From Candidatus Zambryskibacteria bacterium CG10_big_fil_rev_8_21_14_0_10_42_12 (GTDB taxonomy: Bacteria; Patescibacteriota; Minisyncoccia; Phycocordibacterales; 1-14-0-10-42-12): DNA of 64,000 nucleotides. Each line of letters opens with the position of its first letter. The stretch's first letter is position 1. The stretch lies in the NCBI GenBank assembly GCA_002787695.1, contig PCXL01000011.1, positions 61,155-125,154 on the forward strand, given 5' to 3'. Below are positions 1,083 to 50,981 of this stretch, piece after piece. The notes under the pieces are model-generated. The model did no database searches. It worked only from the letters and a program-made list of their open reading frames with translations, and was not told the origin of the DNA. The translations under genes and the position numbers were made by a program.

Positions 1083-1127
1083 ACTTTTTGTGCGCGGTGA
1101 GGGACTCCCCGCCTGCCAACGCCTGAA

Positions 1128-1195
1128 GTCGTAGACAATAGCGGGCAGGGAACCCCCGGCATCAACAACGTCAATGTTGCGCTCTACCAACTGAC
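1128..1195 (-). pseudogene. Degenerate tRNA-Val(GAC)-like copy (D-arm and anticodon arm recognisable; acceptor and T arms do not fold canonically)
   Basis: The minus strand reads GGGTCAGTTGGTAGAGCGCAACATTGACGTTGTTG. It has a D-loop like AGTTGGTAGAGC and an anticodon stem CAACA/TGTTG with loop TTGACGT (anticodon GAC), but no acceptable T-arm. It lies directly 3' of the intact tRNA-Val and is bounded by 17-bp direct repeats CCGCCTGCCAACGCCTG at 1109-1125 and 1196-1212. Confidence 0.35.
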
Positions 1196-1210
1196 CCGCC
1201 TGCCAACGCC

Positions 1211-1285
1211 TGGTGATCCTTGGTGGGATCGAACCACCGACCTTTTCGATGTCAACGAAACGCTCTACCACTGAGCTAAAGGATC
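1211..1285 (-). tRNA. tRNA-Val (anticodon GAC)
   Basis: Minus strand: GATCCTTTAGCTCAGTGGTAGAGCGTTTCGTTGACATCGAAAAGGTCGGTGGTTCGATCCCACCAAGGATCACCA. It forms a cloverleaf with anticodon loop TTGACAT and an encoded CCA. Confidence 0.85.
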
Positions 1286-1358
1286 GTATGCATGGCGGGC
1301 AGCTAACCGCGCAGAACGGGGCTATAGTATCGTTTCTGGCTGTATATTTCAAATGGTA

Positions 1359-1769
1359 TTAATCTTCGTACGCAAGTACCACAAGTGCTGAAAACGCGAG
1401 AGTGAGGTTCTTTACAACAAATTCTCCGGCGAGTGAAAGCACGGGGAAATATGGATCAAATACGACGTGCCAGCCGTAGAGAAACGTTGAGAATGTCCCG
1501 GCAAGGTGCGCGACAAGAAGTACATGAGTAAGGCTGCGCGCTTTGTTGATGAGGATCATGATTCCCAAAATAGTTTCTATGATGCCGAGCGTGATGAGGC
1601 CTGCACCGTCTGAAAACCAGGGCACCATAGAGTGGTAAACCAAATCAAAGACAGGATTGAATCCAAATATTTTAAGCAATCCAAACCATATGAAAATAAT
1701 AGCGAGCGTGAGCCTCAGAGCGGTTAATAGATGGTGTTTATGCGGAGATGTTTTTAACATTTTTTCCAT
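1359..1769 (-). CDS. Small polytopic membrane protein, DUF417/YkgB(RclC)-like
   Basis: 136 aa with about four TM helices. N-terminal LRLTLAIIFIWFGLLKIFG resembles the YkgB-family signature. Assignment is from memory of the family. Confidence 0.45.
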   Translation of the reverse strand: MEKMLKTSPHKHHLLTALRLTLAIIFIWFGLLKIFGFNPVFDLVYHSMVPWFSDGAGLITLGIIETILGIMILINKARSLTHVLLVAHLAGTFSTFLYGWHVVFDPYFPVLSLAGEFVVKNLTLAFSALVVLAYED

Positions 1770-1850
1770 AAGAAATATTATATCAATTTAAAGGGTCGCT
1801 ATTTGGGGATTTGTCCCAACATTTCTGTCTAACATAAATCTCACCTTCAT

Positions 1851-1898
1851 CCTGTATACGTTTATTTTATGCTATAGCATAAAATAAACGTATACAGG
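1851..1898. terminator. Perfect 48-bp palindrome (24/24 bp arms, no loop) in the intergenic region
   Basis: CCTGTATACGTTTATTTTATGCTA|TAGCATAAAATAAACGTATACAGG. It lies between the stop of the 1916-2218 gene and the start of the 1359-1769 gene, both on the minus strand. It is either a terminator-like hairpin or a dyad operator. Confidence 0.5.
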
Positions 1899-1915
1899 TG
1901 AAAGAATGTGACCAG

Positions 1916-2218
1916 TTACTTCTTTGATTTTCTGGAGAGTACAAATTTTTGCGAGGGGCTTGCCGGCTTGTCTCTGCGATGAATGCAGCCGGCCCAACAG
2001 CAGGGGCGACGCTTACCTTTGGCAAGGTCACTGACCGCGCGTTTTATATGCTGTGTGCGTGTTTCTGCTTTTTTGACCGATATTACCCAACAGATCCATT
2101 CATTTCGTGCGAGCGGTGTAATATCTTCCCATACCCTTTGTGCTTTTGCTGAAGCAGAAAGTGCTTTCTGGAGATCGGCAGGGAGTTTGTGAGCTACGCC
2201 ATCTGAGAGTTTAGGCAT
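1916..2218 (-). CDS. YdeI/OmpD-associated (OmdA, bacteriocin-protection) family protein
   Basis: 100 aa. PADLQKAL...NEWICWVISVKKAETRTQHIKRAVSDLAKGK matches the P-DL-AL...WI..AKK.ETR..RI...LA.GK pattern of this family. Confidence 0.6.
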   Translation of the reverse strand: MPKLSDGVAHKLPADLQKALSASAKAQRVWEDITPLARNEWICWVISVKKAETRTQHIKRAVSDLAKGKRRPCCWAGCIHRRDKPASPSQKFVLSRKSKK

Positions 2219-2336
2219 ATATTGATTTTAGCAAATATACAAGCCGTCTCGAGTTGGAACTGTGGGAGGCCTTGTCCAGCTTGGTGGATTCAACGACATT
2301 GTAAACTCAATTTGATAGTGTCTCGTGCGTAACTCT

Positions 2337-2693: not shown

Positions 2694-2731
2694 AATCTTA
2701 TTGTATCACTAGCATCTCATGCTATCTGTTA

Positions 2732-2770: not shown

Positions 2771-2865
2771 TTTTCGTCAAAAAGTTTTAGTCTGGGCACC
2801 GGCTCGCGTACAGGCACTACTGTGCCTGACTTCGTACGCTCCGCCGTTCGAATCCCACCTCATCC

Positions 2866-2898: not shown

Positions 2899-2914
2899 AC
2901 TCCTTTGTTTTATG

Positions 2915-3001
2915 CGGAGAGGGAGGGATTCGAACCCTCGGTACGGTTTCCCGTACACCGCGTTTCGAGTGCGGCACATTCGACCACTCTGTCACCTCTC
3001 C
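2915..3001 (-). tRNA. tRNA-Ser (anticodon CGA), type II with long variable arm
   Basis: Minus strand: GGAGAGGTGACAGAGTGGTCGAATGTGCCGCACTCGAAACGCGGTGTACGGGAAACCGTACCGAGGGTTCGAATCCCTCCCTCTCCG. It has anticodon loop CTCGAAA, variable-arm hairpin GTACGG-GAAA-CCGTAC, and T-arm GAGGG/CCCTC. Confidence 0.8.
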
Positions 3002-3070: not shown

Positions 3071-3142
3071 GGCCCTATCGTCTAACGGTTAGGACATCGG
3101 CTTTTCAAGCCGGTAATCGGGGTTCGATTCCCCGTAGGGTCA
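3071..3142 (+). tRNA. tRNA-Glu (anticodon TTC)
   Basis: GGCCCTATCGTCTAACGGTTAGGACATCGGCTTTTCAAGCCGGTAATCGGGGTTCGATTCCCCGTAGGGTCA. It has anticodon loop TTTTCAA and T-loop TTCGATT. Confidence 0.9.
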
Positions 3143-3200
3143 CATGAAAAATGAAGAGGCTCCCGCAAGGGAGCTTTTTCATGTGACCCTACGGGCAGAA
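3143..3200. terminator. Compound hairpin terminator after tRNA-Glu; its outer stem is an inverted copy of the tRNA 3' end
   Basis: GGGTCACATGAAAAA-TGAAGAG-GCTCCC-GCAA-GGGAGC-TTTTTCATGTGACCC. The inner 6-bp stem plus T-run is flanked by a 15-bp outer inverted repeat. Confidence 0.6.
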
Positions 3201-3330
3201 AGGGGTCGGGGAAACTGGGTGTTTCCCCGTGGAGGAAGGCAGTGAGTCCTCGAACGTTGGAAAACCGTGGGTTTCCAAGGTCTCGTAAGGGTCAATGAAA
3301 AATTATCTGTGACCGAAAGTGTATTCACGT

Positions 3331-3348
3331 TTCCCCGTAGGGTCACAT
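3331..3348 (+). repeat. 18-nt perfect direct repeat of the tRNA-Glu 3' end (TTCCCCGTAGGGTCACAT)
   Basis: Identical to 3128-3145. The two copies bracket a 185-bp hairpin-rich segment at 3146-3330. Confidence 0.8.
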
Positions 3349-4348: not shown

Positions 4349-5671
4349 ATGAATACCAATCAACATCAAAAAAATTATGAGGTGAAACTACCCAGAATAA
4401 TGACGATCGTTTTAAGCATTGCTTCTTATTATAGAAAAACATATTTTAATACTAATGACTTAGCTATATTAGGAAACAAATATAAGCAGGATATAATACG
4501 CACCAGGAAAGATAAGGAGCACTATGCTTTTGCGAATGACACGAATTTCGGCGGAATTAGAGGTAATCTCGCTACTTTGTTGACTTGGAAGGGGGTTATT
4601 AAAAAAGATAATAGATTAGTTAATGCGTATTCTGTTGGCAGAAATGAACAAATAGTTAATGCTGTTGCTAGTGGAAAAATTATGCTTGATCTGACAAACG
4701 ACAAAGCTCATACACAGAATGAGAATCTTTTAAAATTATTGAAGGCTGAGATTTACTTAAGGTCAGTCAGGGAAGGTCAGGCACATATAAAAACATTTAT
4801 AAAGAACAATAACCATATTGGTTTTGGGAGAGATCTTGAGTTTCCAAAAACTTCTGTAGTAAAGACCAGTAAAGGTGTATGTTTTTTGAGGGCAATTGTT
4901 AATAATTTTGTAGATAGTAAAAATGAAGTTCTTAGTTATAGAATAGTCGATTTATGGTCTTCTAAAAAAATTTTAAAAGCTAATATTCATGTCTTATTTG
5001 TTGTTCCTAGAGGTAGTGACTATTGGTGTTCTATCTATGCTTTGTCTTTGGAGGAACTGTGGATCAATAAACCTGCAATTATAAATATAAACTTACTAAA
5101 CAAAAAATGTTTTGATGACATTGGAAAAGAGTATGAATTAAGAAAATTAGATTATGCGATAAATAATTTTACGAAAAGAGATGCAAATATAAATTTGCGT
5201 ATAGGGTATGATCCAAGAGAATTTTTAATTAGATATGTTATTGATGAAACAAAAAATAAGAGAATAAGGGAAAGTGAATTTAGTTTGTTTACCAAGAATT
5301 TCTTGAATTGGAATCCGAGAATAAAAATTAATAATGTGGAGGTGTGTAACATTATTGAATCAAGTTCTGGTGGTGTTGATCTGACACTCCAGTTTGTTAA
5401 TGGATCTGAGGCAAAGGTTGAGCTTGAGCATAATTGGAAAAATTATATTGATCATGGTCATCATACTAGTAACGCATGGTCAAAATGTTGGTTGTATGCT
5501 GATGAGCAGTGGGATTTCGATAATATAAAAAATATTTTTCAAACACATTTTAAAAAGCACGGAGACCGTGTTCCAACAACATTTCTAACTAAAATAGATG
5601 GTAAACAAAAGATATTTAGAGTTGATTGGCATACTCTTGATGTTTCGGAAATCGATATTACAAATTATTGA
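4349..5671 (+). CDS. Putative restriction endonuclease of the adjacent R-M system (no recognisable family; C-terminal D...EAK PD-(D/E)XK-like motif)
   Basis: A 440-aa ORF in a strongly AT-rich block of roughly 30% GC. It is convergent with, and ends 6 bp inside, a two-methyltransferase operon. The C-terminal GGVDLTLQFVNGSEAKVELEH resembles a PD-(D/E)XK core. The call is by genomic context. Confidence 0.4.
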   Translation: MNTNQHQKNYEVKLPRIMTIVLSIASYYRKTYFNTNDLAILGNKYKQDIIRTRKDKEHYAFANDTNFGGIRGNLATLLTWKGVIKKDNRLVNAYSVGRNEQIVNAVASGKIMLDLTNDKAHTQNENLLKLLKAEIYLRSVREGQAHIKTFIKNNNHIGFGRDLEFPKTSVVKTSKGVCFLRAIVNNFVDSKNEVLSYRIVDLWSSKKILKANIHVLFVVPRGSDYWCSIYALSLEELWINKPAIININLLNKKCFDDIGKEYELRKLDYAINNFTKRDANINLRIGYDPREFLIRYVIDETKNKRIRESEFSLFTKNFLNWNPRIKINNVEVCNIIESSSGGVDLTLQFVNGSEAKVELEHNWKNYIDHGHHTSNAWSKCWLYADEQWDFDNIKNIFQTHFKKHGDRVPTTFLTKIDGKQKIFRVDWHTLDVSEIDITNY

Positions 5672-6414
5672 TTTGTGATTTTCTTTATGTTTTTCAATTC
5701 TTTTAGTCTATTGATCATAATTGCGTAGTATTCACTATCTTTTTCTATACTTATACTATTTCTCTCTAGGTCATTTGCAACTTTTGTTATTGTTCCACTA
5801 CCAGCAAAACAGTCTAAAATCAGATCGTTTTTATTGGTGAAAATTTTAATTAGAAATTCAATAACTTTCTCAGGTTTTTGTGTAGGGTGTTTTGTTCTTT
5901 CTTTTCCCATACATATCGGTGTTTCTATAAAATTATGCATCTCTCTTTGGTTGCTAAAGTTGAAAGTGTAGCTGATTTTTTTATTATCGAAACCGTTCGT
6001 TGCCCATACAATTGCCTCATTGGAAGACAAAAAACCATTTTTTCTAATTTGTGGTGCCGGATTTGTTTTATGCCAAATTATTGTTGCATGATGTGAAAAA
6101 CCTAACGATTCGTAGATCCGCTTAATATCACTTATATATTCTAACTTACAGAATAAAACTAAATTACCATTTTCCTTTAAAACTTTTTTAATCTCACTTA
6201 CCCACTTTCTGGTAAAAACCAAGAATTCATCATCTTTAAAATAGTCCCATTCTCCAAAATCAGAAGAAAGAGCTTTTCTACCTTTCAATAATTTCGTATT
6301 TTTATTGGCAGTATTGTAGGGAGGATCCACAATAACGGCATCAACTTTTCTTTTGATTTTACCTAGGGAGTTAAAAACATCTCCAAGGATTAGTGTGTGT
6401 TTGTTCTTTTTCAT
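5665..6414 (-). CDS. Site-specific DNA methyltransferase (beta-class N6A/N4C, DPPY motif before FxGxG)
   Basis: VIVDPPYN (motif IV), HPTQKP, DCFAGSGTT (motif I) at the C-terminus. Its start codon overlaps the stop of the upstream methyltransferase (TAATG), indicating translational coupling. Confidence 0.85.
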   Translation of the reverse strand: MKKNKHTLILGDVFNSLGKIKRKVDAVIVDPPYNTANKNTKLLKGRKALSSDFGEWDYFKDDEFLVFTRKWVSEIKKVLKENGNLVLFCKLEYISDIKRIYESLGFSHHATIIWHKTNPAPQIRKNGFLSSNEAIVWATNGFDNKKISYTFNFSNQREMHNFIETPICMGKERTKHPTQKPEKVIEFLIKIFTNKNDLILDCFAGSGTITKVANDLERNSISIEKDSEYYAIMINRLKELKNIKKITNQ

Positions 6415-7343
6415 TAGGTTTTATTTTTTATTCTATCAATCGACATCTTGTAGAACGCGTTGTCTATTTCGCATCCAGAGTAAAACCTGTTCATTCTTTT
6501 GGCTACCACAGCAGTGGTACCAGATCCGAGAAAAGGGTCGAAAACAATGTCACCGCTGTTTGTTGTTGATTTAATAATTCTTTCTAGTAACCACTCAGGT
6601 TTCTGTGTTGGGTGTATCTTCTTTCCTCCAAAAGTTTTACCTTTTGGCCAAATAGATCTCATTTGCTTGCCATCATTGTCTTTTTTCATTAAATCATAAT
6701 TGAAAATATTCCCCTTTCCTTTTCTGGCCCAAATAAAATTTTCGTGATCTGCTACGAATCTAGTACAAGACAAATTGGGTGTCGCATCTGTTTTATGCCA
6801 CAAGATTTCATTTAATAATTCAAAGCCAGTTTTTTCTAATAAATAACCGGTCGTATAAATACTGTGATAAGTTCCTGCCACCCATATTGCTCCATTTTTT
6901 TTCAAAATACGGAATGCCTCGTCTATCCATTTTTTCGTAAATAGTTCATAATTATCGATTATGTCCCAAAGACCTTTATTAGTATATAGGTCTTTGCCAC
7001 CTGATTTTGTAAATTTAATTTTAAAATTGCTTTTACTGAGATTATAAGGGGGGTCTGCAAAAATGAGGTCTATAGACTCGTCTTCTATTGAGCTCATTAT
7101 CTTTATGCAGTCATCGTTAAAAATCTTATTCTTGAGCCCGTCTTTTGTTATTTTATCTCTCGCCTCTTTTTTAGGTTTTTTAGAGAGGGTAAGTAGATAT
7201 GCTAATGAATCTTTTTCAATTCTTCTGGCACCTCCAATTTTAATAGAAGGAATTATATTTTTAGATATGTATCTTTTTATAGTTATTTCAGACACATTTA
7301 AAAAATCAGAAGCTTCTTTTATTGTGTAAAAATTTGGCTGCAT
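6414..7343 (-). CDS. Site-specific DNA methyltransferase (beta-class) with N-terminal HTH domain
   Basis: N-terminal MQPNFYTIKEASDFLNVSEITIKRYI (HTH). IFADPPYN, HPTQKP, DPFLGSGTT. Confidence 0.85.
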   Translation of the reverse strand: MQPNFYTIKEASDFLNVSEITIKRYISKNIIPSIKIGGARRIEKDSLAYLLTLSKKPKKEARDKITKDGLKNKIFNDDCIKIMSSIEDESIDLIFADPPYNLSKSNFKIKFTKSGGKDLYTNKGLWDIIDNYELFTKKWIDEAFRILKKNGAIWVAGTYHSIYTTGYLLEKTGFELLNEILWHKTDATPNLSCTRFVADHENFIWARKGKGNIFNYDLMKKDNDGKQMRSIWPKGKTFGGKKIHPTQKPEWLLERIIKSTTNSGDIVFDPFLGSGTTAVVAKRMNRFYSGCEIDNAFYKMSIDRIKNKT

Positions 7344-10078: not shown

Positions 10079-10714
10079 ATGAAGAAAGTAACAGCAATTA
10101 TTGCTACAGTAGCATTTCTCGCAAGTGTGAACGTAGCAAACGCATGGTACTGGGGCGGATGGAATGATGATGACAATACGGTAAACATCAATACTACAAA
10201 TTCTGCAACAGTTTCAAATACAGTAACTACAAAGGCAAACACTGGCTCAAACACAACAGTTGGCGGTAGTGCTGGTAACACAGTATCTGGGTATGGCAAC
10301 AACGGTGGTAATGATGCTACTGGAGGAGATGCAGATGTTGATACTGGTGATGCAACAGCAGTTAGTGATGTTCTCAACAATGTGAACGGAACTGACATTA
10401 ACGTTGTTGGTCCAGACTGTGGTTGTGAAGGTGACAACGAAGTAAACGTAAACGTTAGAAATAGCGCAACGGTTACAAACGATGTTTACACCAAAGCAAA
10501 CACGGGCTACAACACAACAGTTGGCGGCAGTGCAGGTAATGATGTAGACGGCGCTACTCGCCCATGGTGGAGAAGACATCATGTGGTAAATGGTGGCAAC
10601 AACGGTGGTAATGATGCTACTGGAGGAGATGCAGATGTTGATACTGGAGAAGCAGTAAGTGGTACGGTGGTATCTAATTACGTAAACCAGACAATAGTTC
10701 GCGTACGACGATAA
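10079..10714 (+). CDS. Secreted repeat protein (signal peptide; internal repeats TKANTGxNTTVGGSAGN and NGGNDATGGDADVDTG)
   Basis: Start chosen at MKKVTAIIATVAFLASVNVANA (signal peptide). Two near-identical internal repeat blocks. Confidence 0.6.
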   Translation: MKKVTAIIATVAFLASVNVANAWYWGGWNDDDNTVNINTTNSATVSNTVTTKANTGSNTTVGGSAGNTVSGYGNNGGNDATGGDADVDTGDATAVSDVLNNVNGTDINVVGPDCGCEGDNEVNVNVRNSATVTNDVYTKANTGYNTTVGGSAGNDVDGATRPWWRRHHVVNGGNNGGNDATGGDADVDTGEAVSGTVVSNYVNQTIVRVRR

Positions 10715-11285: not shown

Positions 11286-13938
11286 AAAAGACCCAATATG
11301 TGAACAAGTGCTAGCGATATGGATCGCGCTTGTGCTTGTATGTGTTCCTGGTGCACCACTGTATGCTGAAGAAGGTGGAGATGCGGAGATAAACACTGGA
11401 GACGCGACTGTTTCGGTTGAAGCAACAAATAGTGCGAACAACAATGTTGTAGACACTGAACCAGAACCAGATCCAGCAGAGGAAGAAGAACAACCTGAAT
11501 CTGTAGAGGAACAAAGTGCTGGCGAGTCAGATGGATCAACAGAAGAAGGTGGGGACGACGAAGGTGCCACATCATCGCCGAGTTTATTGAGTCAGGAACA
11601 GCATGAATTGGCAACGAGTACGGCAACATCGACAGACCCAGTTGCTCAAACGGAGGTCGCTTCAACAACGGGCACGACTACTACACACACAACTATAGAT
11701 ATTGATAATGAAGCACATCTGGAATCAGGTGCCGATTTACTTGCACAGACAGGCGAGAATACTGCGACAAGCACAGGAACGACCACGATAGAAACGGGTG
11801 ATGCATATGCAAACGTAAATATTTTGAATATTGCGAATACAAATATTATTGATTCCTACGGTTTCATGTTGCTCCTTAATAGTTTTATGGGAGATATTGG
11901 AACGATAGATTTTAGAGATTTTATAGCACCATTACTTTTTAATAATAATCAGCAGTCATCTTGTGGTACCGGAGTTTGTGGAGGAGATGATACGCTCGAT
12001 ATTTCTGGAACCAGTACAACAACCATAAACAATGCCGTTATCGTGCGTTCGCAGACTGGTGGCAACTCTGCTTCTGGTGGTGATGCGTCAATACAAACAG
12101 GAGATGCATATGCGGGTGCTAATGTGGTCAATATCGCGAATACTAATATTGTTGATTCGAACTATATGTTGCTTGCCCTCAACAATTTTGGAGATTGGTC
12201 GGGGGATTTGGTGTTGCCTGGAAAAGATTTCTTTATCAATATGCTCTATGGCATGGGTACGACTGGCGCAGGAACAGTGACGGTGAATACAGAAAACAAT
12301 GCGAACATTGAAAACGGAGTTTCTACAGTTGCCGATACAGGAGGTAACACTGCAACAAGTACAGAGAGTGGAGCCAATATTGAAACAGGAAATGCTACAG
12401 CTCAAACAAACGTAACGAATGTAGTAAACCAAAATTTCTTTAATCAGGATTCACTATTTATTATCTTTAAAGTGCATGGCACATGGTCGGGAAATGTATT
12501 TGGACTACCGCCAGGGCTTTCATGGCGCGAGACACCGCATGGTATTGAAGTATTTGGAAGTGGACAGACGCAGACAGGTTCATCTGGTACTGGCTTGAAT
12601 AATCTCTCGATAAACCAACAGAACAATGCCGACATTAAAAACAACGTAGAACTGTATGCTCTTACGGGAGAAAATGAAGCAGGGGGAGGTAATACATCTA
12701 TTCAAACAGGTAATGCGTACGCCGGTGCCAATGTGGTTAATATGGCAAACACTAATATCATTGGCCGCAACTGGATACTTGCCATCGTAAACATCTTTGG
12801 TGACTGGAATGGAAACTTGGCCTTTGGACGACCTGACCTCTGGATAGGTGGCAAAATAGAGCCCGTAAACCCAATGAGTCCTATTGGACCCGGTTCTGAA
12901 CTTCGATATAAAGTTGTTGTGGTAAATAGAGGAGATTCTGATGCGACAGATGTTGTGCTTAAACATCGTTTTGATGTGCCATTTGTCTCATTTGTAGACA
13001 CAAGTAATCCTCAGAAGGTGAATGAGAGAGATACACTATGGAATATTGGCACGATCGCTGTTGGCGAACATGTTGAAATAACATTGCCTGCAGTGGTAAA
13101 AAGTGCACGTGAAATTGTAAGTGGTACAACTCGTATTGAGAGCATGTTTGAGGTTACGTCGTTTGAAACGGATGCTGACAGTGGTGACAACAAAGAGCAT
13201 CTTTCTGTTGTTATAGATAACTATGATGCAAACCTATCTCCAGTAAATCTAAATCCAAACATAGAAGAACCGGTCGTGCCGGTATTACCAGACTTTAGTG
13301 TAGTGAAGACGAGCAGTACTCATACAACAGTGGCAAGCAGTACAGTGGAATATACCGTGACGCTTAAAAATAATGGTGGGTTTGCGCCTGATGCGGTAGT
13401 GATCGATGCACTCAAAGATGAGAACGGAAATATTGTTTTTGAGCAGGTATGGCAACTCGGTCCCGTCTATGAGAATGAGGAAATTACCATTACATACGGA
13501 ACTATCTTTAGTGGTGATATGGAACCGGGATTATACACAAACACTGCAGAAGTCATTGCAAAAGTATCTACCGATAGCGAAGATGTTATCCGATCTTCCG
13601 CCGATGCGATCGTCGCACTGGAAGCAGGTGTAGTGGTAGAACCGCCAGTGATTCCTGCACCAGTGGTACAGCCTGTCAGACGACAGATTGTGGCGATGAA
13701 TGATACATACGGTATAACCCTGATCCCTCCGATGTGTAGCCTCTACAGTTGCTTAATAGATACGGATGATGAGGCTTCTACTCAATTTGGGTTCGGTAAC
13801 ATGTTTCTCGCATCAGCCTTTGGTAGCGGATTCCCGCCAAGTGACGATAGATCACTCAAACTCTTTATTTTGGCAGCAGTCATGTATGCGGTTGGCAGAC
13901 CAAGAGAGAATCGTCATGGCATGTCACTGTTCTTCTAA
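11266..13938 (+). CDS. Large cell-surface protein: signal peptide, Thr/Asn-rich beta-helix-like repeats (TGxNxAxxGxAxIQTGxAYAGANVVNxANTNI), two DUF11/CARDB-like domains, C-terminal hydrophobic anchor
   Basis: The repeat recurs at least four times. The DUF11-like segments are YKVVVVNRGDSDATDVVLKHRFDVP and YTVTLKNNGGFAPDAVVIDAL. The start is inferred at MYFGGY, overlapping the previous gene. Confidence 0.6.
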   Translation: MYFGGYKKDPICEQVLAIWIALVLVCVPGAPLYAEEGGDAEINTGDATVSVEATNSANNNVVDTEPEPDPAEEEEQPESVEEQSAGESDGSTEEGGDDEGATSSPSLLSQEQHELATSTATSTDPVAQTEVASTTGTTTTHTTIDIDNEAHLESGADLLAQTGENTATSTGTTTIETGDAYANVNILNIANTNIIDSYGFMLLLNSFMGDIGTIDFRDFIAPLLFNNNQQSSCGTGVCGGDDTLDISGTSTTTINNAVIVRSQTGGNSASGGDASIQTGDAYAGANVVNIANTNIVDSNYMLLALNNFGDWSGDLVLPGKDFFINMLYGMGTTGAGTVTVNTENNANIENGVSTVADTGGNTATSTESGANIETGNATAQTNVTNVVNQNFFNQDSLFIIFKVHGTWSGNVFGLPPGLSWRETPHGIEVFGSGQTQTGSSGTGLNNLSINQQNNADIKNNVELYALTGENEAGGGNTSIQTGNAYAGANVVNMANTNIIGRNWILAIVNIFGDWNGNLAFGRPDLWIGGKIEPVNPMSPIGPGSELRYKVVVVNRGDSDATDVVLKHRFDVPFVSFVDTSNPQKVNERDTLWNIGTIAVGEHVEITLPAVVKSAREIVSGTTRIESMFEVTSFETDADSGDNKEHLSVVIDNYDANLSPVNLNPNIEEPVVPVLPDFSVVKTSSTHTTVASSTVEYTVTLKNNGGFAPDAVVIDALKDENGNIVFEQVWQLGPVYENEEITITYGTIFSGDMEPGLYTNTAEVIAKVSTDSEDVIRSSADAIVALEAGVVVEPPVIPAPVVQPVRRQIVAMNDTYGITLIPPMCSLYSCLIDTDDEASTQFGFGNMFLASAFGSGFPPSDDRSLKLFILAAVMYAVGRPRENRHGMSLFF

Positions 13939-30134: not shown

Positions 30135-30138
30135 CAAT

Positions 30139-30519: not shown

Positions 30520-30523
30520 CATT

Positions 30524-30973: not shown

Positions 30974-30980
30974 ACGTATT

Positions 30981-31319
30981 ATGAAAAAAATCGTCTTACT
31001 TTCTACACTTTTTGCACCTCACCTGCTATTTGCCCAACTAATTACATCAGACTTTAAAAGTTTTGTTACGAGCCTGGTGAATGCGTTTTTACCGACACTG
31101 TTGGGTATCATTGCTCTTATTTTGTTTTTGTATTTCGTCTGGCGTGTAGCACAGTTTATTTTGCATGCAGACAGTAAAGAAACACGTTCATCTGCGAGTC
31201 GAGTGTTTCTCTGGGGTATTCTCGCTCTGTTTGTTGCAGCATCACTTGTTGCCATAATTTCATTTTTACTGGGAGAGTTTGGTTTTGGCGTACCGGTTAT
31301 TCCTAAATTGCCACAATAA
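30981..31319 (+). CDS. Small 2-TM pilin-like protein, paralog 3
   Basis: Signal peptide MKKIVLLSTLFAPHLLFAQ and a VFLWGILALFVAASL core. Confidence 0.5.
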   Translation: MKKIVLLSTLFAPHLLFAQLITSDFKSFVTSLVNAFLPTLLGIIALILFLYFVWRVAQFILHADSKETRSSASRVFLWGILALFVAASLVAIISFLLGEFGFGVPVIPKLPQ

Positions 31320-31378
31320 CAGTGGGTTGTTGATAAATAGTAGTCATTTGAGCATTAAACATATTACAATTAAAAATT

Positions 31379-31753
31379 ATGAAAAAAAGTATATATATAA
31401 GTTTGCTAGCATTATCACCACTCATTGTATTGGCACAACCATCTAGTGGTTATTTAACACAATCACAAGGTTTATTGGATGGAGTTTTAAATACGATTAC
31501 ATTACTTATTGGTATTGCAATTGTGCTCGCGTTTCTATTTTTTGTGTGGGGTATTGCAGAATTTATCCGTAAGGCAGATGATGCTGGCAATAGAGCAGAA
31601 GGTCGCCAGAGAATGATCTGGGGTATTGTTGCGCTCGCTGTTCTTGCAACTGTCTGGGGTATTGTGAGATGGCTACAGATTGAACTTGGTCTTTCTGCAA
31701 ACGAAGCTGCGCCGGGAATATTCCAATTCTTCCAGCTTTGGAGTGGTAACTAA
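31379..31753 (+). CDS. Small 2-TM pilin-like protein, paralog 4
   Basis: Signal peptide, then AGNRAEGRQRMIWGIVALAVLATVWGIV. Confidence 0.55.
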   Translation: MKKSIYISLLALSPLIVLAQPSSGYLTQSQGLLDGVLNTITLLIGIAIVLAFLFFVWGIAEFIRKADDAGNRAEGRQRMIWGIVALAVLATVWGIVRWLQIELGLSANEAAPGIFQFFQLWSGN

Positions 31754-31838
31754 TCCACATTGTATCCTTGCCACTTCCGTAGTAGCATTGTCTCATAGGT
31801 GCTAAACGCCCTTAATTATAAAGTTTTATTTACTCAAA

Positions 31839-32189
31839 ATGAAAAAAGCAGTTATTACTTCTTTGATGCTTGGCGCAATGCCGTTTATTGCAAGTGCCCA
31901 GCTTGAAAACATTGAAGACATTGTTGTATCAATTGGTGATATTATCGACCTTTTGGTACCTATTGTGTTTGCACTCGCTATCCTCTATTTCTTCTGGGGA
32001 CTTGCACAATTTATCTTGGCTTCAGGAGACGAAACCGCACGTGCAGAAGGCCGCCAGAAGATGATCTGGGGTATTGTAGCAATTGCAGTAATGGCATCTA
32101 TCTGGGGACTTGTGTTCTTCTTGCAAGATGCTGTTGGTGTAAGTCGAGTAGACGCACCGTCTATCGATGTTATTCCGACTGTCAACTAA
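31839..32189 (+). CDS. Small 2-TM pilin-like protein, paralog 5
   Basis: Signal peptide, then ARAEGRQKMIWGIVAIAVMASIWGLV, almost the same motif as paralog 4. Confidence 0.55.
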   Translation: MKKAVITSLMLGAMPFIASAQLENIEDIVVSIGDIIDLLVPIVFALAILYFFWGLAQFILASGDETARAEGRQKMIWGIVAIAVMASIWGLVFFLQDAVGVSRVDAPSIDVIPTVN

Positions 32190-37339: not shown

Positions 37340-37421
37340 GCCCGGGTGGCGGAACTGGTATACGCGCACGACTTAAAATCGTGTTCCGAAAGGGGTGCGG
37401 GTTCGATTCCCGCCCCGGGCA
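37340..37421 (+). tRNA. tRNA-Leu (anticodon TAA), type II
   Basis: GCCCGGGTGGCGGAACTGGTATACGCGCACGACTTAAAATCGTGTTCCGAAAGGGGTGCGGGTTCGATTCCCGCCCCGGGCA. Confidence 0.85.
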
Positions 37422-37610
37422 CAAGAATAAAAGAACTGGGCACGAATGTGTCTCGTGATTTTTATTCTCGCCTCGGGCGGGAATCGAAAGCCGGAGCGCG
37501 CGAAGCCGACCGTAGGTCGTGTGCGAGGCGGGGTCGCGACCTCCGTCGTGAAGATTTACCCAGCACTTATAACATAAGTGCTGGGTTTATCGAAACAGGA
37601 GAGTTGTGAC

Positions 37611-37628
37611 CGATTCCCGCCCCGGGCA
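37611..37628 (+). repeat. 18-nt direct repeat of the tRNA-Leu(TAA) 3' end (CGATTCCCGCCCCGGGCA)
   Basis: Identical to 37404-37421. The 190-bp segment between them contains hairpins and a partial inverted copy of the T-arm (GCGGGAATCGAA). Confidence 0.8.
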
Positions 37629-38076: not shown

Positions 38077-38784
38077 GTGCTAATGTTTTTTATATTAATA
38101 TATGGTATACGCTATATGCCTTACAATATTAAATACTACAAAACATATCAGTGGAGTAAAAAGTTGGCATATATAATTGGACTTATTGCAACAGATGGAA
38201 GTCTGTCTGTTGACGAGCGTCATATTGATTTTACATCTAAAGATTTAGAGCTTATCAAAATTTTTAAAGATTGTCTGAAACTTTCAAATAAAATAGGTAT
38301 TAAGAAGAGCGGCACAAACAGAGTTTGTTTTTGTATACAATTTGGTAACAAGAATTTTTACAACTTTCTAAATTCTATAGGGATTTATAAGGCTAAATCC
38401 AAAACTATAAAAAGGATTGATATACCTAATAAATATTTTCCACATTTTTTACGTGGCTGTTTGGATGGCGATGGTAATATTGATTTATACAAACATGCAC
38501 AAAGTCAATATATGCAAATTAGATTTAGATTTGCATCTGCGAGTAAACCATTTCTAGAATGGATATTACAGGTATTAAAAATAAAATATAGTATTGAAGG
38601 AGGTTGGATTTATAGTCAAAAAAATAAATCAACCCATGTTTTAGTCTTTGGTAAGACAGACACTTTGAAAATTGGAAAAATCATGTATCATGACCATGCG
38701 AACTTATGCTTACAAAGGAAGTTTGCAAAATATAAACAATGGGCAAGTGGCGGAATTGGTATACGCGCTAGTCTTAGGAACTAG
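38077..38784 (+). CDS. LAGLIDADG homing endonuclease (double-motif), AT-rich; 3' end overlaps tRNA-Leu(TAG) by about 44 nt
   Basis: Two LAGLIDADG motifs, LAYIIGLIATDGSLS and FLRGCLDGDGNID. About 28% GC. It lies between tRNA-Lys and tRNA-Leu(TAG). Confidence 0.8.
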   Translation: MLMFFILIYGIRYMPYNIKYYKTYQWSKKLAYIIGLIATDGSLSVDERHIDFTSKDLELIKIFKDCLKLSNKIGIKKSGTNRVCFCIQFGNKNFYNFLNSIGIYKAKSKTIKRIDIPNKYFPHFLRGCLDGDGNIDLYKHAQSQYMQIRFRFASASKPFLEWILQVLKIKYSIEGGWIYSQKNKSTHVLVFGKTDTLKIGKIMYHDHANLCLQRKFAKYKQWASGGIGIRASLRN

Positions 38785-38822
38785 TGCCGCAAGGCTTGGG
38801 AGTTCGAGTCTCCCCTTGCCCA
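38741..38822 (+). tRNA. tRNA-Leu (anticodon TAG), type II
   Basis: GGGCAAGTGGCGGAATTGGTATACGCGCTAGTCTTAGGAACTAGTGCCGCAAGGCTTGGGAGTTCGAGTCTCCCCTTGCCCA. Confidence 0.85.
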
Positions 38823-38950
38823 CAGTGAGTTTTCGAACGAGGACAAGGACTAGCTTGTGATAACAAGCGTTAGTCTGACTCGAAGCCTGTTTGAGATATT
38901 TTGTGAGCTGGCGAAACAAAATATCCAAACACGGGTACTGAACCTGTAAG

Positions 38951-38974
38951 GTTCGAGTCTCCCCTTGCCCACAG
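38951..38974 (+). repeat. 24-nt direct repeat of the tRNA-Leu(TAG) 3' end (GTTCGAGTCTCCCCTTGCCCACAG)
   Basis: Identical to 38802-38825. The intervening 125 bp contains the hairpin GATATTTTGT...ACAAAATATC and a partial anticodon/T-arm-like stretch. Confidence 0.8.
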
Positions 38975-46624: not shown

Positions 46625-47431
46625 ATGGCTAGACGCTGGACAAAAGAAGAAGAGAAGTATTATCGAGATGAATTAGTAAATTTATATTACTCCAAAAACT
46701 TGAGCATGCATGAGGTAGCAAAGGTTTTGAATATAAAATCAGCTACGGTTTTTGATAGATTGCGCCGGTTACGTATTAACACGGTGCCTCATCTTAAGAA
46801 GGGTTATCGAAACGTTCGCAAAGATATTCGTATCCCAGATTGTCATGATGCAAATTTGGCAGAATTTTTTGGCATCATGTTGGGCGACGGCCACCTTTCT
46901 CATTTTCAAGTAACCGTAACATTGGGAACAAAAGAATATGTGTATGTGCAATATGTAAAAAAGTTAATGGAAAAAATTTTTAAAGTGCCAGTTAAAATCT
47001 CAGAAAGGAAGTTTAAGCGAACGGATAATAAGCATTATACTGTTTATTTTGGTTCAACCGTAACGAGTCAGTGGTTAAAAACTGAGGGTTTAGTAGAAAA
47101 TAAAGTGAAAAATCAAGTCGATGTTCCAAAGTGGATATTTGAAAATAATATATTCATGGAAAGATTTTTAAGAGGGTTTTTTGATACTGATGGATCGGTT
47201 TATAAATTGAGGCACGGCATACAAATTGGACTAACAAACCGTTCACTACCGATGCTGAAATCTTTACAATTGATGCTAAAAACACTAGAATACAGGACGT
47301 CTGAAATCAGTGGTTTTCGCTTGTATATAACAAAGAAGCAGGATCTAAAAAGGTTTTTTAAAGAGATTAAACCGAAAAATCCAAAACATACTGCCAGATT
47401 TCAGGAATATCTCAATGCGTCAGTCGCATAG
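46625..47431 (+). CDS. LAGLIDADG homing endonuclease (double-motif) with N-terminal HTH; 3' end overlaps tRNA-Tyr by 15 nt
   Basis: Two LAGLIDADG motifs, LAEFFGIMLGDGHLS and FLRGFFDTDGSVY. N-terminal LSMHEVAKVLNIKSATVFDRLRRL is HTH-like. AT-rich. The stop codon TAG lies inside the tRNA-Tyr acceptor/D region. Confidence 0.8.
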   Translation: MARRWTKEEEKYYRDELVNLYYSKNLSMHEVAKVLNIKSATVFDRLRRLRINTVPHLKKGYRNVRKDIRIPDCHDANLAEFFGIMLGDGHLSHFQVTVTLGTKEYVYVQYVKKLMEKIFKVPVKISERKFKRTDNKHYTVYFGSTVTSQWLKTEGLVENKVKNQVDVPKWIFENNIFMERFLRGFFDTDGSVYKLRHGIQIGLTNRSLPMLKSLQLMLKTLEYRTSEISGFRLYITKKQDLKRFFKEIKPKNPKHTARFQEYLNASVA

Positions 47432-47500: not shown

Positions 47501-47568
47501 CAATAAAGTAAAACAGCTCGCAAGGAGCTGTTTTACTTTGTATTGCTCTGTTTGGTATATTTAATCCT

Positions 47569-48804: not shown

Positions 48805-48839
48805 ACAAAACCCCAGACATGGGGTTTTGTTTATACTAG

Positions 48840-48911
48840 CGGGTCCACGAGGACTCGAACCTCGAACTTCGGTTTTGGAGACCGACGTTTTACCATTGAA
48901 ACTATAGACCC
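48840..48911 (-). tRNA. tRNA-Trp (anticodon CCA)
   Basis: Minus strand GGGTCTATAGTTTCAATGGTAAAACGTCGGTCTCCAAAACCGAAGTTCGAGGTTCGAGTCCTCGTGGACCCG. Confidence 0.85.
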
Positions 48912-48927
48912 TGACGGCCCGAGTATA

Positions 48928-49824
48928 TCACAAACGGATTAGATTGAGGATCTTGGCGATTTCATTTTTTTCAATCCATTTAATCTCCTTATTCCTCTTA
49001 AACCACGTCATTTGGCGCTTGGCATAATCGACAATAGCTTTTTCAAGCTGAACAATCATTTTTTCTTTTGATATTTTGTTTTGAAGATAATCGGCGAGGT
49101 ACCTGTATTCAAGCCCGAGTTCACGCATGCGTTTGTATGACAATCTATTCTCATGAAGTCGTTGTGCTTCAGTAACCATACCCTTTTTCATACGAGAAAT
49201 GAGGCGATCGTGGATGCGTTTTTTGAGTTCTTCTGGTTCCGACTTAATACCAATCCATGTGACATCATAAGGAACGTTATTTTTTTGCTTGGGAACTTTA
49301 CCAAGAGATTTTACTATCTCAATAGCACGTATGAGGCGTACTTTATTATGGTGGTCTATTGTTTGTGCGCGCTCCGGATCAAGTTTTTTGAGTGTTTCAA
49401 AAAGTTTTTCAGTACTTTGTTTTTGTAGTTCGTTGCGCAGTTTTTTGTTCGGCAAGACTTCGGGGAATGTTTGACCTAAAAGGAGTGCATCAATATAAAA
49501 ACCAGTGCCTCCGCACACAATTGGTGCCTTACTACGATCAAGAATATTCGTAATGGTTTTGTTTGCATCACGCGTAAACTGTGCAACGGTGTATGTTTTT
49601 TTGGGATCTGTCACATCAAGTAGGTGGTGTGGAACGCCTCGCATTTCGCGTTTTGTTATTTTTCCAGTGCCAATATCAAGTCCTTTGTATACTTGGCGAG
49701 AGTCTGCAGAAATTACCTCACCTCCAATTTTTTGAGCAAGCAAAACCGCGAGATCACTCTTGCCGGATGCAGTCGGTCCGACAATCGCAATTACTCGCGG
49801 TCTTGTTTTTTTCTTGAGAGCCAT
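48928..49824 (-). CDS. miaA: tRNA dimethylallyltransferase
   Basis: VIAIVGPTASGKSDLAV (P-loop), DSRQVYKGLDIGTGK. Confidence 0.9.
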   Translation of the reverse strand: MALKKKTRPRVIAIVGPTASGKSDLAVLLAQKIGGEVISADSRQVYKGLDIGTGKITKREMRGVPHHLLDVTDPKKTYTVAQFTRDANKTITNILDRSKAPIVCGGTGFYIDALLLGQTFPEVLPNKKLRNELQKQSTEKLFETLKKLDPERAQTIDHHNKVRLIRAIEIVKSLGKVPKQKNNVPYDVTWIGIKSEPEELKKRIHDRLISRMKKGMVTEAQRLHENRLSYKRMRELGLEYRYLADYLQNKISKEKMIVQLEKAIVDYAKRQMTWFKRNKEIKWIEKNEIAKILNLIRL

Positions 49825-49831
49825 TTAGGAA

Positions 49832-50770
49832 TTAATTATATGTGGGTGCAGGCGCGTATGTGGGAGCAGATGTATAAGCTGGTGCATCTCCGTAACTTGG
49901 TGCGGACGTATATGCAGGAGCGCTACCGTACGCTGGTGCTGACTGATAGTCCGGAGTAGATCCATATGTAGGTGCGCCACTGTATGTTGGGGCATTATCG
50001 GACGTTCGCGCATTGCTGTATGCTGGCGCATCTCCATATGTTGGCGCGGTGCCATAGTTGGGAGCATCATCGTATGTAGAAGCATTTCCGTAGGTTGGAG
50101 CAGTATTGTATGTTGGACCGTCTGAATAAGATGGTGCTTCGCCGTATGCTGGAGCACTACCATAACGAGGAGTATTGCCGTAACTCGGTGCTGATTGGTA
50201 GGATGGAGCGTTGCCATAAGAAGGCGCATTTCTATAGTCTGGTGCGTTATCATATGATGGTGCACGACGGTACGATCCGCTATTTCGATACGATGATGTA
50301 CGTGAATATTGCACATTCTTGTATCGAGGCGCTGACTCATAAGCCGGAGCGTCTTCATACGCAATTGATTCGTACGAGTCTACTTTTTCGTATGTTTGTG
50401 TTCGTGTTTCATTTCCTTCACGATTTGTTGCTTCATCGAATGCAGCAACTGCTTCTTCTCTGAAATAGCCGTCTGCTATAAAACGAGGATCAAGAGATTG
50501 TTTCGCCCAAAATTCTGGACAGTCTGGGTCGTCCATATCAATAAGGCCGTCGCCGTCGTTGTCTGATGCATCGGCGCATTTTGGACAGTCGATATCTTCA
50601 AGGTCGGCATATCCATCGCCGTCGTTGTCTATACCATCAAAACACATAGCATAAAGTGGGGCAGGATAGGGCAGTGTGTCGTTTGGAATTTCGGCAATAA
50701 CTAAAGACGGCACTATGACAGAAAGTGCTAAAAATGAGCTAAAAACCTTATTCTTTAGGCTTAATTTCAT
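49832..50770 (-). CDS. Secreted protein with Ca-binding-like DxDxDG motifs and a long C-terminal Tyr/Pro/Ala hexapeptide tandem repeat (xAPxYG)n
   Basis: Signal peptide. DGIDNDGDGYADLEDIDC and DNDGDGLIDMDDPDC. About 30 consecutive hexamers such as NAPSYG, SAPSYG, TAPTYG, DAPAYS. Confidence 0.6.
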   Translation of the reverse strand: MKLSLKNKVFSSFLALSVIVPSLVIAEIPNDTLPYPAPLYAMCFDGIDNDGDGYADLEDIDCPKCADASDNDGDGLIDMDDPDCPEFWAKQSLDPRFIADGYFREEAVAAFDEATNREGNETRTQTYEKVDSYESIAYEDAPAYESAPRYKNVQYSRTSSYRNSGSYRRAPSYDNAPDYRNAPSYGNAPSYQSAPSYGNTPRYGSAPAYGEAPSYSDGPTYNTAPTYGNASTYDDAPNYGTAPTYGDAPAYSNARTSDNAPTYSGAPTYGSTPDYQSAPAYGSAPAYTSAPSYGDAPAYTSAPTYAPAPTYN

Positions 50771-50821
50771 ATTAGTATATTATAACACTTAATATTATGA
50801 AAATCAAGTGAATCAGGATTT

Positions 50822-50867
50822 GTATTGTATGTGCCACGCGAGGGAATTGAACCCTCATGGATCACTC
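50822..50867 (-). pseudogene. 3'-half fragment of a tRNA-Leu-like gene (variable arm, T-arm, acceptor 3' strand only)
   Basis: Minus strand GATCGTGTGGAGTGATCCATGAGGGTTCAATTCCCTCGCGTGGCA is about 75% identical to the 3' half of the adjacent tRNA-Leu(CAA). No 5' half is present. Confidence 0.6.
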
Positions 50868-50899
50868 CACACGATCTGCTTCAGGCTTTGAAAACACGG

Positions 50900-50981
50900 T
50901 GCTGGGAGGGAGAATCGAACTCCCATGGATTGCTCCACACGATTTTGAGTCGTGCGCGTCTACCAATTCCGCCACCCCAGC
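50900..50981 (-). tRNA. tRNA-Leu (anticodon CAA), type II
   Basis: Minus strand GCTGGGGTGGCGGAATTGGTAGACGCGCACGACTCAAAATCGTGTGGAGCAATCCATGGGAGTTCGATTCTCCCTCCCAGCA. Confidence 0.85.

Follow-up and report, generated by a model that had tools for sequence, protein, structure and literature searches.

Short structured inserts bounded by copies of tRNA 3' ends in Candidatus Zambryskibacteria and other Paceibacteria: candidate miniature elements mobilised in trans

The present study concerns short non-coding inserts that lie directly behind tRNA genes in a 64,000-nucleotide stretch of DNA from Candidatus Zambryskibacteria bacterium CG10_big_fil_rev_8_21_14_0_10_42_12 (assembly GCA_002787695.1, contig PCXL01000011.1, positions 61,155 to 125,154 of the forward strand), which is hereafter called the window. 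Candidatus Zambryskibacteria belongs to the Paceibacteria of the candidate phyla radiation (CPR), uncultivable organisms about whose mobile DNA hardly anything is known. The window is bacterial, dense in genes, and approximately 43% GC, and its gene content includes ParB, FtsZ/FtsA, gyrase A, topoisomerase I, DprA, and a short IF-2. ARAGORN and Rfam agree on ten tRNA genes; a preliminary description of the same sequence counted eleven, the additional one being a Val-like copy at 1138-1205 on the minus strand that reaches 21.8 bits (E=0.22) and is below the tRNA model threshold of 29.

Behind four of these genes, namely, tRNA-Ser(CGA), tRNA-Glu(TTC), tRNA-Leu(TAA), and tRNA-Leu(TAG), the tRNA gene's 3' end recurs as an exact direct repeat of 17, 18, 18, and 24 nt, respectively, as the preliminary description had stated. 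Each of these copies starts in or beside the T loop and ends 1-3 nt past the discriminator, and we refer to the repeat unit within the tRNA as DR1 and to the distal unit as DR2. The enclosed segments measure 125-190 bp, contain no open reading frame (ORF), and are strongly folded (z = -4.5 to -7.5 against dinucleotide shuffles), and those behind Ser, Glu, and Leu-TAA carry an inverted copy of their own tRNA end 40-60 nt past the tRNA; the hairpin-rich nature and the occasional inverted tRNA end reported earlier were both recovered. No downstream copy of the 3' end was found for the Lys, Cys, Tyr, and Trp tRNAs of the window.

The gene for tRNA-Ser(CGA) is located at 2914-3001 on the minus strand (ARAGORN; Rfam, 54 bits), and its last 17 nt form DR1 at 2912-2928 in plus-strand numbering. 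The Ser insert (2749-2913) consists, in the tRNA sense, of an A-tract, a terminator-like hairpin at 2880-2900, a T-tract, an inverted tRNA end at 2846-2876 (74% over 31 nt), and a module of the type defined below as class A (profile match 2856-2749, E=4.7e-12), with a fold z of -7.5, and it is closed by the exact 17-nt DR2 at 2732-2748. Over a wider extent, the Ser repeat shows 81% identity across 32 nt, and the copy at 2729-2760 retains a T-arm-like hairpin with a mutated loop. On the plus strand, tRNA-Glu(TTC) at 3071-3143 (ARAGORN, Rfam; DR1 at 3128-3145) is followed by a composite insert at 3144-3330, in which a trailer with a hairpin at 3159-3174 precedes an inverted copy at 3175-3195 that is complementary at 21 of 21 nt (100%), the trailer CATGAAAAA included. 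A class B module (3197-3281; profile match E=1.3e-22) follows, and the distal part holds a degenerate older copy of the tRNA end and trailer (3276-3305) with the class-A-type tail GTGAC CGAAAG. The Glu DR2 at 3331-3348 is an exact 18-nt copy of 3128-3145, which is the tRNA-Glu 3' end plus 2 nt.

Both Leu inserts lie on the plus strand. That of tRNA-Leu(TAA), a gene at 37340-37422 (ARAGORN, Rfam; DR1 at 37404-37421), spans 37423-37610 and comprises an A-tract, a hairpin, a T-tract, an inverted acceptor and T arm at 37470-37488 (89%), and a class A module at 37489-37610 that terminates in ...GTTGTGAC, matches the class profile with E=1.2e-10, and has covariation support; the 18-nt DR2 at 37611-37628 equals 37404-37421 and starts at T-loop position C56. 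Behind tRNA-Leu(TAG) at 38741-38823 (ARAGORN, Rfam; DR1 at 38802-38825), the insert at 38826-38950 contains hairpins, an inverted copy reduced to an 8-nt anti-T-loop (GACTCGAA), and a class C module composed of a long P1 hairpin, GTAC, and a P2 hairpin with a TGTAA loop (profile match 38879-38959, E=3e-8), in which P2 covaries, and it ends at an exact 24-nt copy of 38802-38825 (DR2, 38951-38974).

Two further sites are of another kind. At 50830-50875 on the minus strand, 22 nt past the live tRNA-Leu(CAA) (50898-50981), lies the divergent partial copy previously noted: a diverged 3' half of approximately 46 nt that runs from the anticodon stem to the acceptor, carries no module, and is of the classic anticodon-loop type, with an acceptor that differs and derives from another tRNA-Leu(CAA) allele. 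Directly downstream of tRNA-Val(GAC) at 1211-1285, the region at 1108-1212 (minus strand) holds the degenerate Val-like copy (1138-1205) bracketed by a direct repeat (1108-1125 = 1195-1212); the earlier account of this arrangement gave the repeat length as 17 bp, measured here as 18 nt. The Val case is a tandem partial duplication without a module.

The inserts of the window and those found in other Paceibacteria share one order on the tRNA strand: the live tRNA end (DR1), a new trailer usually made of an A-tract, a hairpin, and a T-tract, the inverted copy, the module, DR2, and the old flank. The flanks of each module are an inverted (left) and a direct (right) copy of whichever tRNA lies upstream. 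The copied segment varies in length between 5-7 nt and 32 nt, two forms of the left flank occur, ...TCGAA and ...G(T/G)(G/C)CG, and junctions are specific to the module class, such as ...GTGAC followed by a copy from C56. The best-preserved inverted part is that of the T stem and T loop (10-14 nt); the inverted acceptor strand is often degenerate or absent, and in approximately eight inserts a perfect 9-bp hairpin splits the inverted copy exactly between its acceptor and T-stem parts. In the Glu insert, the inverted copy is the complement of the genomic trailer and not of CCA, and at a G.U pair of the tRNA it matches the 3' acceptor strand GACCCTA and not the 5' strand GGCCCTA. What the inverted copy reproduces is the gene itself, at the level of DNA, and reverse transcription of a mature tRNA was rejected as its origin because the genomic trailer takes the place of CCA.

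Comparisons were made with contigs and loci of Paceibacteria, designated by L-numbers (L001, L005, L077, etc.). A scan with IF-2 across species representatives and JGI metagenomes revealed no relative with more than 54% identity, and all matches were from Patescibacteria/Paceibacterota. Through a protein database, and from there to contigs, the nearest relative by IF-2 was found to be P0002, with 82% identity and three syntenic contigs (L077-L079); P0004 and P0005, from the protein database, have an IF-2 that is 70% identical to that of the window. In contig L140, a neighbouring protease gene is 88% identical to its window counterpart, and the IF-2 of the L011 genome is only approximately 52% identical. 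Two further assemblies of the window strain are 100% identical to the window and add no tRNA, and L078 and L079 are identical to each other, so that they provide no strain polymorphism.

The preliminary description had proposed that downstream repeats of tRNA 3' ends be compared with those of related genomes, and we performed this comparison on the Paceibacteria loci. Among 223 tRNAs with enough flank, copies of the 3' end with a score of at least 14 numbered 19 downstream and one upstream, and inverted copies with a score of at least 12 numbered 18 downstream and none upstream; the few 5'-end matches were neighbouring Leu paralogues. With duplicates removed, the 3'-end copies amounted to 15/178, versus 0/178 in the upstream control. 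An insert was present downstream of 24 of the 178 distinct tRNA loci (13%) and upstream of none. By our own arithmetic, chance would yield approximately 5e-6 15-mer matches per tRNA in 400 nt, which is in agreement with the earlier judgement that chance is very unlikely.

Occupancy is patchy within each tRNA type (Cys 6/38, Tyr 5/27, Leu-TAA 5/32, Leu-TAG 4/26) and reciprocal between the window and its nearest relative. The tRNA-Leu(TAA) sequence is identical in the window and L077-L079, with the insert in the window only and a plain terminator in the relative, and the two trailers (window and L077) cannot be aligned despite the identical genes. The Leu-TAG site is filled in the window and empty in L077-L079; conversely, Cys, Tyr, and Trp are empty in the window and carry inserts with repeats of 13-19 nt in L077-L079, the tRNA-Trp sequence again being identical and filled in the relative only. 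Aligning the enclosed segments with those of relatives, as had also been suggested, thus revealed homologous modules and both states of the site. These data bear on the view that the segments are a conserved, lineage-specific trailer or processing structure, or else a product of chance or assembly. Members of this clade usually have long terminator hairpins that begin directly at the end of the tRNA, which speaks for a trailer structure; nevertheless, identical tRNAs occur with and without an insert in close relatives, a minority of loci is occupied, upstream controls are empty, and identical features recur across assemblies made independently from numerous samples. A fixed trailer architecture, the third option of the preliminary description, is ruled out by the patchy minority occupancy, and we regard this group of explanations, already refuted by the occupancy data, as extremely improbable.

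The inserts carry at least three conserved module classes. Class A consists of AGSCGGAGCG, a hairpin, CGCGAGNCGGGG, and a long hairpin ending in ...TTGTGAC, and is found at the Ser and Leu-TAA sites of the window, at Cys in L019 (two, in tandem), L078, and L005, at Tyr in L005, at Lys in L003 and L043, and in L016 and L057. Class B, in which two GGGAAAC/GTTTCCC hairpins flank GGAGGAAGG, is present at window Glu, L077 Tyr, L011 Gly, and L140 Glu; a mini-ORF in this class was rejected by eye, the frame not being conserved between copies. Class C is made up of a long hairpin, then GTAC, and then a hairpin of 5-6 bp whose loop is TGTAA, and its sites are window Leu-TAG, L077 Trp, L029, L036 (two), L001, L006, and L041 (two). 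In profile searches with the three classes across 1.13 Mb of Paceibacteria DNA, every match was on the tRNA strand, directly 3' of a tRNA or of a single decayed tRNA remnant; within Paceibacteria, the elements are confined to positions directly behind the 3' ends of tRNA genes. Between distant genomes and different tRNAs, modules share 89-96% identity, a very high level for non-coding sequence, as exemplified by window Glu and L077 Tyr (96% over 54 nt) and by L011 Gly and L140 Glu (94% over 50 nt), and the Cys and Tyr modules of the single genome L005 are about 93% identical. Their kinship follows neither site nor genome: the window Glu module, of the long form as at L077 Tyr, is closer to that module than to its positional counterpart in L140, which has the short form as at L011 Gly.

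Several inserts retain traces of their history. At L077 Tyr and L036 Leu-TAG, CCA forms part of the live gene but is missing from DR2, which suggests that the proximal 3' end came with the insert and that the distal end is the displaced original. At L019 Cys, the units are in tandem and the second begins at the DR2 of the first; the segment from the T loop to the 3' end therefore suffices as a target. Window Glu and L001 Tyr are nested or composite, with an older, diverged tRNA-end copy inside. Assemblies also break at the inserts: L140 starts inside an element and L077 has an N-gap at its Cys element.

Restriction to tRNA 3' ends, reciprocal occupancy at identical tRNAs, modules that are incongruent with site and genome, tandem and nested copies, and assembly breaks together point to mobile elements moved in trans. 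The interpretation that we prefer, with a probability of roughly 0.5, is that the four perfect cases are miniature (approximately 90-190 bp), non-coding, structured elements that are mobilised in trans and have tRNA 3' ends as their homing targets; among the options raised in the preliminary description, this is the best supported, since covarying modules are common to different tRNAs and genomes. We infer that such elements would be inserted and lost as DNA by recombination centred on the segment of the tRNA gene between the T loop and the 3' end, and that the tRNA would survive because its 3' end is present on both sides. The enzyme would be supplied in trans because none is encoded in an element or was found in the window. 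The attachment site might be one arm of a folded hairpin that recombines with the target and leaves behind the order site, spacer hairpin, inverted site, body, and site. By analogy, recombination of a folded hairpin, as for the CTX phage at dif or integron attC, appears to be the most likely chemistry, and it would account for structure mattering on one strand.

A direct repeat of a tRNA 3' end on both sides of a polymorphic insert, with an intact tRNA, is shared with phages, integrative and conjugative elements, and genomic islands that use a tyrosine integrase. The T loop, where the repeats begin, is a known crossover sublocation in the passage of PMC9897764 that cites Williams 2002. The earlier reading of the repeats as a classic attL/attR signature holds in these respects; on the other hand, the element contains no integrase, and no fixed crossover or attP characterises a family, the DR2 of class A starting in the T loop at L005 Cys and consisting only of CACAAAG at L005 Tyr, L003 Lys, and L043 Lys. 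Streptococcal CIMEs (cis-mobilisable elements) are integrase-less derivatives without a recombinase of their own, and resemble the present inserts in this regard. Integrase elements and CIMEs are kilobases in length, whereas the inserts are 90-190 bp, gene-free, and built from covarying hairpin modules with an internal inverted tRNA-end copy; moreover, one module class serves many tRNAs, with repeats of 5-7 to 32 nt.

The same likeness raises the possibility of inert scars, in which integrase-carrying phages or islands entered tRNA genes and lost nearly all of their DNA, with attL and attR left close together. The direct repeat is the classic mark of such events, tRNA gene fragments flanking elements of 9-121 kb are a known and common phenomenon (PMC9897764), and the Leu-CAA fragment of the window and a Leu 3' half in L006 do look scar-like. 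Deletions that happened independently of each other, however, would not spare one and the same set of covarying modules behind several tRNAs and in genomes far apart, an inverted tRNA-end copy is not expected in an attL/attR pair, and each tandem unit is structurally complete. Furthermore, none of 238 tRNAs had a repeat of its end more than 400 nt away, the mark of a large island, or an integrase-bearing island; the sole match reflected the T-arm similarity of two tRNAs. Scars, the first option of the preliminary description, fit only the Leu-CAA fragment and perhaps Val, and we consider them unlikely for the four module-bearing inserts.

The modules are under structural constraint. Within the proposed helices of class A, 93.6% of cells are paired versus 79.4% in shuffles (0 of 500 reach 93.6%), and both sides have changed in 6 of 14 pairs, with slid controls at 22-40%. 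The P2 hairpin of class C is 90.7% paired versus 63.9%, with both sides changed in four of six pairs. One G.U pair of class A is kept in eight of nine sequences and another position alternates between G.U and G-C; P2 of class C has a U.G pair in five of nine sequences and an invariant UGUAA loop. Judged by raw folding energy, the tRNA-sense strand is the more stable one in nine of nine class A modules (21 G.U pairs versus two), whereas z-scores against composition-matched shuffles do not differ between strands; the strand preference hence rests mainly on the conserved G.U.

Helices with compensatory changes are a general property of structured RNAs, and these data make it conceivable that the inserts are structured-RNA genes co-transcribed with the tRNA, in which the inverted copy and DR2 form a minihelix resembling the acceptor and T stem around the module. 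The RNA would be treated like a tRNA by RNase P, RNase Z, and the CCA-adding enzyme, and the stable, tRNA-ended product would have either a cellular role or one in the service of the element, such as that of a guide; in the latter case, this explanation overlaps that of mobile elements. On this view, the copied end of the adjacent tRNA would belong to the way in which the RNA functions. Comparable acceptor/T-stem-like helices, in which the paired segments lie far apart and enclose a large insertion, are known from the tRNA-like domain of transfer-messenger RNA (tmRNA), mascRNA, viral tRNA-like structures, and plant mitochondrial t-elements; the inserts differ from these in copying a particular neighbouring tRNA, in having many copies per genome, and in being present or absent between relatives. 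In addition to the pairing data, the splitting hairpin of approximately eight inserts sits where the rest of a tRNA would emerge, the L036 Leu-TAG site has no terminator between tRNA and insert, and at L036 Tyr the inverted copy and DR2 are still complementary to each other, although both differ from the live tRNA.

A terminator-like hairpin and T-tract, however, precede the module in three of the four window copies, and the inserts contain no internal promoter-like site. G.U-type changes are not overrepresented among the mismatches between inverted copies and tRNAs, the splitting hairpins are palindromic with Watson-Crick pairs throughout and no G.U, and in the class B insert of L011 pairing between the inverted copy and DR2 is impossible, their overlap being only 2 nt. 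Rfam at the gathering threshold returned only tRNAs for the whole window and no insert, and Rfam (release 15) at E<=10 over both tRNA clusters gave tRNAs and noise, with no match to HEARO or omega RNA. Hammerhead, hairpin, and twister ribozyme cores, group II intron domain V, and a retron without reverse transcriptase were considered and rejected by eye. Patchy occupancy, which would be unexpected for a needed RNA, argues together with the terminators and the lack of G.U bias in the inverted copies against a housekeeping RNA, and we consider the structured-RNA explanation possible, albeit doubtful.

A variant of the mobile-element interpretation takes the RNA-like features into account. The modules would be the RNA parts of a new tRNA-homing mobile element, in which a trans-acting enzyme uses the RNA, or a folded single strand, to find tRNA 3' ends; this proposal is tentative and, in our estimation, improbable rather than implausible. 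The RNA would be co-transcribed with the tRNA, the inverted copy (complementary to the tRNA) and DR2 (identical to it) would flank the conserved scaffold, and the target-matching flanks would be copied anew from the target at every insertion. TnpB omega RNA, IS110 bridge RNA, and the exon-binding sequences of group II introns similarly join a structured scaffold to segments identical or complementary to the target, and the 3' guide of omega RNA is flanking DNA, as DR2 would be. Differences from such guide systems are that no TnpB, IS110 recombinase, or intron reverse transcriptase was found in the scanned window ORFs, that Rfam gave no match for these RNAs, that the left flank is not a constant motif resembling a target-adjacent motif (TAM), and that the presumed guide would be paired to the inverted copy. 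An IS200/IS605 derivative such as a palindrome-associated transposable element (PATE) is likewise at odds with the variable left flank, the presence of a duplication, and the lack of an OrfB/TnpB Pfam match in those ORFs. If correct, an RNA-guided version would represent programmable, nucleic-acid-guided insertion with a guide taken from the element's own insertion site and a mimic of the top half of a tRNA.

The DNA-level nature and the extent of the copies are also relevant to a by-product of DNA uptake and repair, in which naturally competent cells recombined DNA acquired from relatives, with the conserved tRNA gene as the anchor, and the modules hitch-hiked. The other joint would be formed by T-loop microhomology or by fold-back at the terminator palindrome, with duplication of the tRNA end as the result. 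DprA and pilin-like genes are present, the palindrome TTCGAA of the T loop is common to all tRNAs as read from their sequences, the extent of the repeat is variable, and the Glu inverted copy, with its trailer and 3' strand, corresponds to a DNA-level inverted duplication with the terminator hairpin as its axis. This explanation leaves unaccounted for the same constrained modules as a constant passenger, their absence elsewhere, and the class-specific junctions, and we find it very unlikely. The DprA gene is located at 56301-57170, and a cluster of small genes resembling type IV secretion system (T4SS) pilins and TrbC, with the pilin call based on synteny with L077, lies at 28845-32189 beside a solute-binding protein gene; both are consistent with a capacity for DNA uptake in this small genome.

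Returning to miniature elements mobilised in trans, general counterparts are miniature inverted-repeat transposable elements (MITEs), REPINs, and bacterial interspersed mosaic elements (BIMEs), which are also small, non-coding, hairpin-rich, multi-copy, intergenic, patchy between strains, and prone to break assemblies. As with MITEs and REPINs in general, homologous copies are found at different loci with presence or absence between relatives. MITEs, nevertheless, have terminal inverted repeats of their own that are identical in each copy and duplicate 2-10 bp at varied sites, whereas the inverted flanks described here copy the local tRNA, differ at every site, and accompany duplications of 5-32 nt that are always a tRNA 3' end. 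For CTX phage and attC sites, a tyrosine recombinase reportedly acts on a folded single-stranded hairpin. Integrative mobile elements exploiting Xer (IMEX) of the CTX type show the same integrated order of site, short spacer, inverted site, body, and site, and they and integron attC sites resemble the inserts in a strand-dependent structure, conserved non-Watson-Crick positions, and the absence of a recombinase from the element. They differ in their targets, dif through XerCD for CTX IMEX and attI for integrons, in place of a tRNA 3' end. By eye, the attC consensus (R'' RYYYAAC / R' GTTRRRY) is not present: the anti-T-loop ATCGAAC and the T-loop GTTCGAT each miss it at the central position, and the GTT right end is kept only in class C.

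Several observations weigh against this preferred interpretation. Some of them concern the absence of a partner. Among 50 window ORFs scanned with Pfam and NCBIfam, we found no integrase, transposase, TnpB, or reverse transcriptase, which upholds for these ORFs the previous statement that the window lacks an integrase, and two LAGLIDADG genes only were detected. In IMG/VR, a class B 15-mer gave 60 matches, all by chance, a class C 21-mer gave none, and a gapped class A pattern gave 120, none upheld by the class profiles; blastn of two inserts against phage and plasmid collections had no match. No recombinase candidate, no free, circular, or autonomous form, and no copies on viral contigs, phages, or plasmids were found in these searches.

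Others concern the flanks and the age of the inserts. One module class is found behind Cys, Tyr, Lys, Leu, and Ser genes, each time with flanks that fit the tRNA concerned, which a pre-formed attachment site does not easily explain, and the extents of DR2 at Cys and Tyr differ within the single genome L005. It looks as if the flanks were copied from the target at insertion, considering their variable length and their fit to each tRNA, and we know of no mechanism that yields both an inverted and a direct copy of the target. At L036 Tyr, the inverted copy and DR2 keep the T stem GTAGG/CCTAC, whereas the live gene has GAAGG/CCTTC; inserts of some age are therefore present, in which the two copies preserve the tRNA as it was when they arose. 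In L140, a class B module is likewise situated directly upstream of the orthologous protease gene, which we take as vertical inheritance. Given old inserts of vertical descent, the patchiness could in part represent loss by deletion between DR1 and DR2 and not gain. A last group comprises features in the style of RNA, namely, the conserved G.U of class A, an internal loop resembling tandem G.A, and the UGUAA loop, which resembles a T-loop motif.

Full-text literature searches returned no description of such elements, and the families appear to be undescribed so far. If mobile, they would be the first families of repeat elements to be reported from Paceibacteria, whose genomes are very small. 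Their insertion sites are single-copy, essential tRNA genes, which stay undamaged, and an inverted plus a direct copy of the local tRNA is a footprint given by no standard mechanism of transposition or integration; the mechanism could reveal a recombinase or a guide system that chooses its targets by copying sequence. From a practical viewpoint, the inserts break assemblies, the tRNA-like fragments can mislead annotation, and presence or absence may be used as a strain marker.

Three loci in the relatives carry further traces near inserts. In L009, downstream of tRNA-Trp (4753-4825, minus strand), only the last 9 nt of class A (ACTTGTGAC) and a 12-nt copy of the T loop and T stem are left at 4709-4752; this remnant may be a deletion derivative or possibly an excision footprint. 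In L006, the region at 12616-12850 downstream of tRNA-Leu-TAA contains the 3' half of a different Leu tRNA (acceptor CCCCGGGCACCA) followed by a class C insert, the distal repeat of which matches the live tRNA and not the intervening fragment, and concerted evolution of the two repeats is possible. In L078, a GC-rich, apparently structured stretch of approximately 250 nt (~1600-1860, minus strand) follows the distal repeat of the Trp insert and has no counterpart behind the tRNA-Trp of the window; it may be another non-coding RNA or element.

Homing-endonuclease-like genes were also found next to tRNA genes. The two LAGLIDADG ORFs of the window (38077-38784 and 46625-47431, both on the plus strand) are free-standing and lie just upstream of the Leu-TAG and Tyr tRNAs, and similar ORFs occur at Cys in L146 (6521-7408) and L147 (2956-3843) and at Tyr in L036 (upstream of 1774). 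The 3' ends of these ORFs overlap the 5' ends of the tRNAs, and their presence does not track the mini-inserts. In L077, tRNA-Lys and tRNA-Leu-TAG are 19 nt apart with no LAGLIDADG ORF between them, and the Leu-TAG sequence is very different from that of the window, on the basis of which the ORF and the tRNA may move together. The end of an HNH-endonuclease-like ORF (...HINGNKHDNRLGNLRILCPNCH...) is situated at ~12966-13100 of L077, immediately upstream of tRNA-Leu-TAA (12883-12965, minus strand), and an unrelated 219-aa ORF occupies this position in the window.

Regarding the tRNA genes themselves, most of those in the window do not encode CCA, and CA directly follows the discriminator (A-CAT, A-CAA, A-CAG; for example, at 3143-3146, 37422-37425, 38823-38826, and 47501-47504), as in many relatives; tRNA-Val and tRNA-Cys encode CCA. 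A low-GC island at 4349-7343 (32-34% versus ~43%), just after the protease gene, contains two N6/N4 DNA methyltransferase genes and a 440-aa ORF without a family match, is probably a restriction-modification system, and is absent at that place in L140. A near-perfect palindrome of approximately 48 nt (cctgtatacgtttattttatgctatagcataaaataaacgtatacagg) lies at ~1850-1897 between two minus-strand ORFs and attracts spurious matches to microRNA models in Rfam at a low threshold. Lastly, self-matches in a BLAST of L268 versus the window revealed a 61-nt repeat with 97% identity at 10294-10354 and 10594-10654, 300 nt apart, amid overlapping ORFs.

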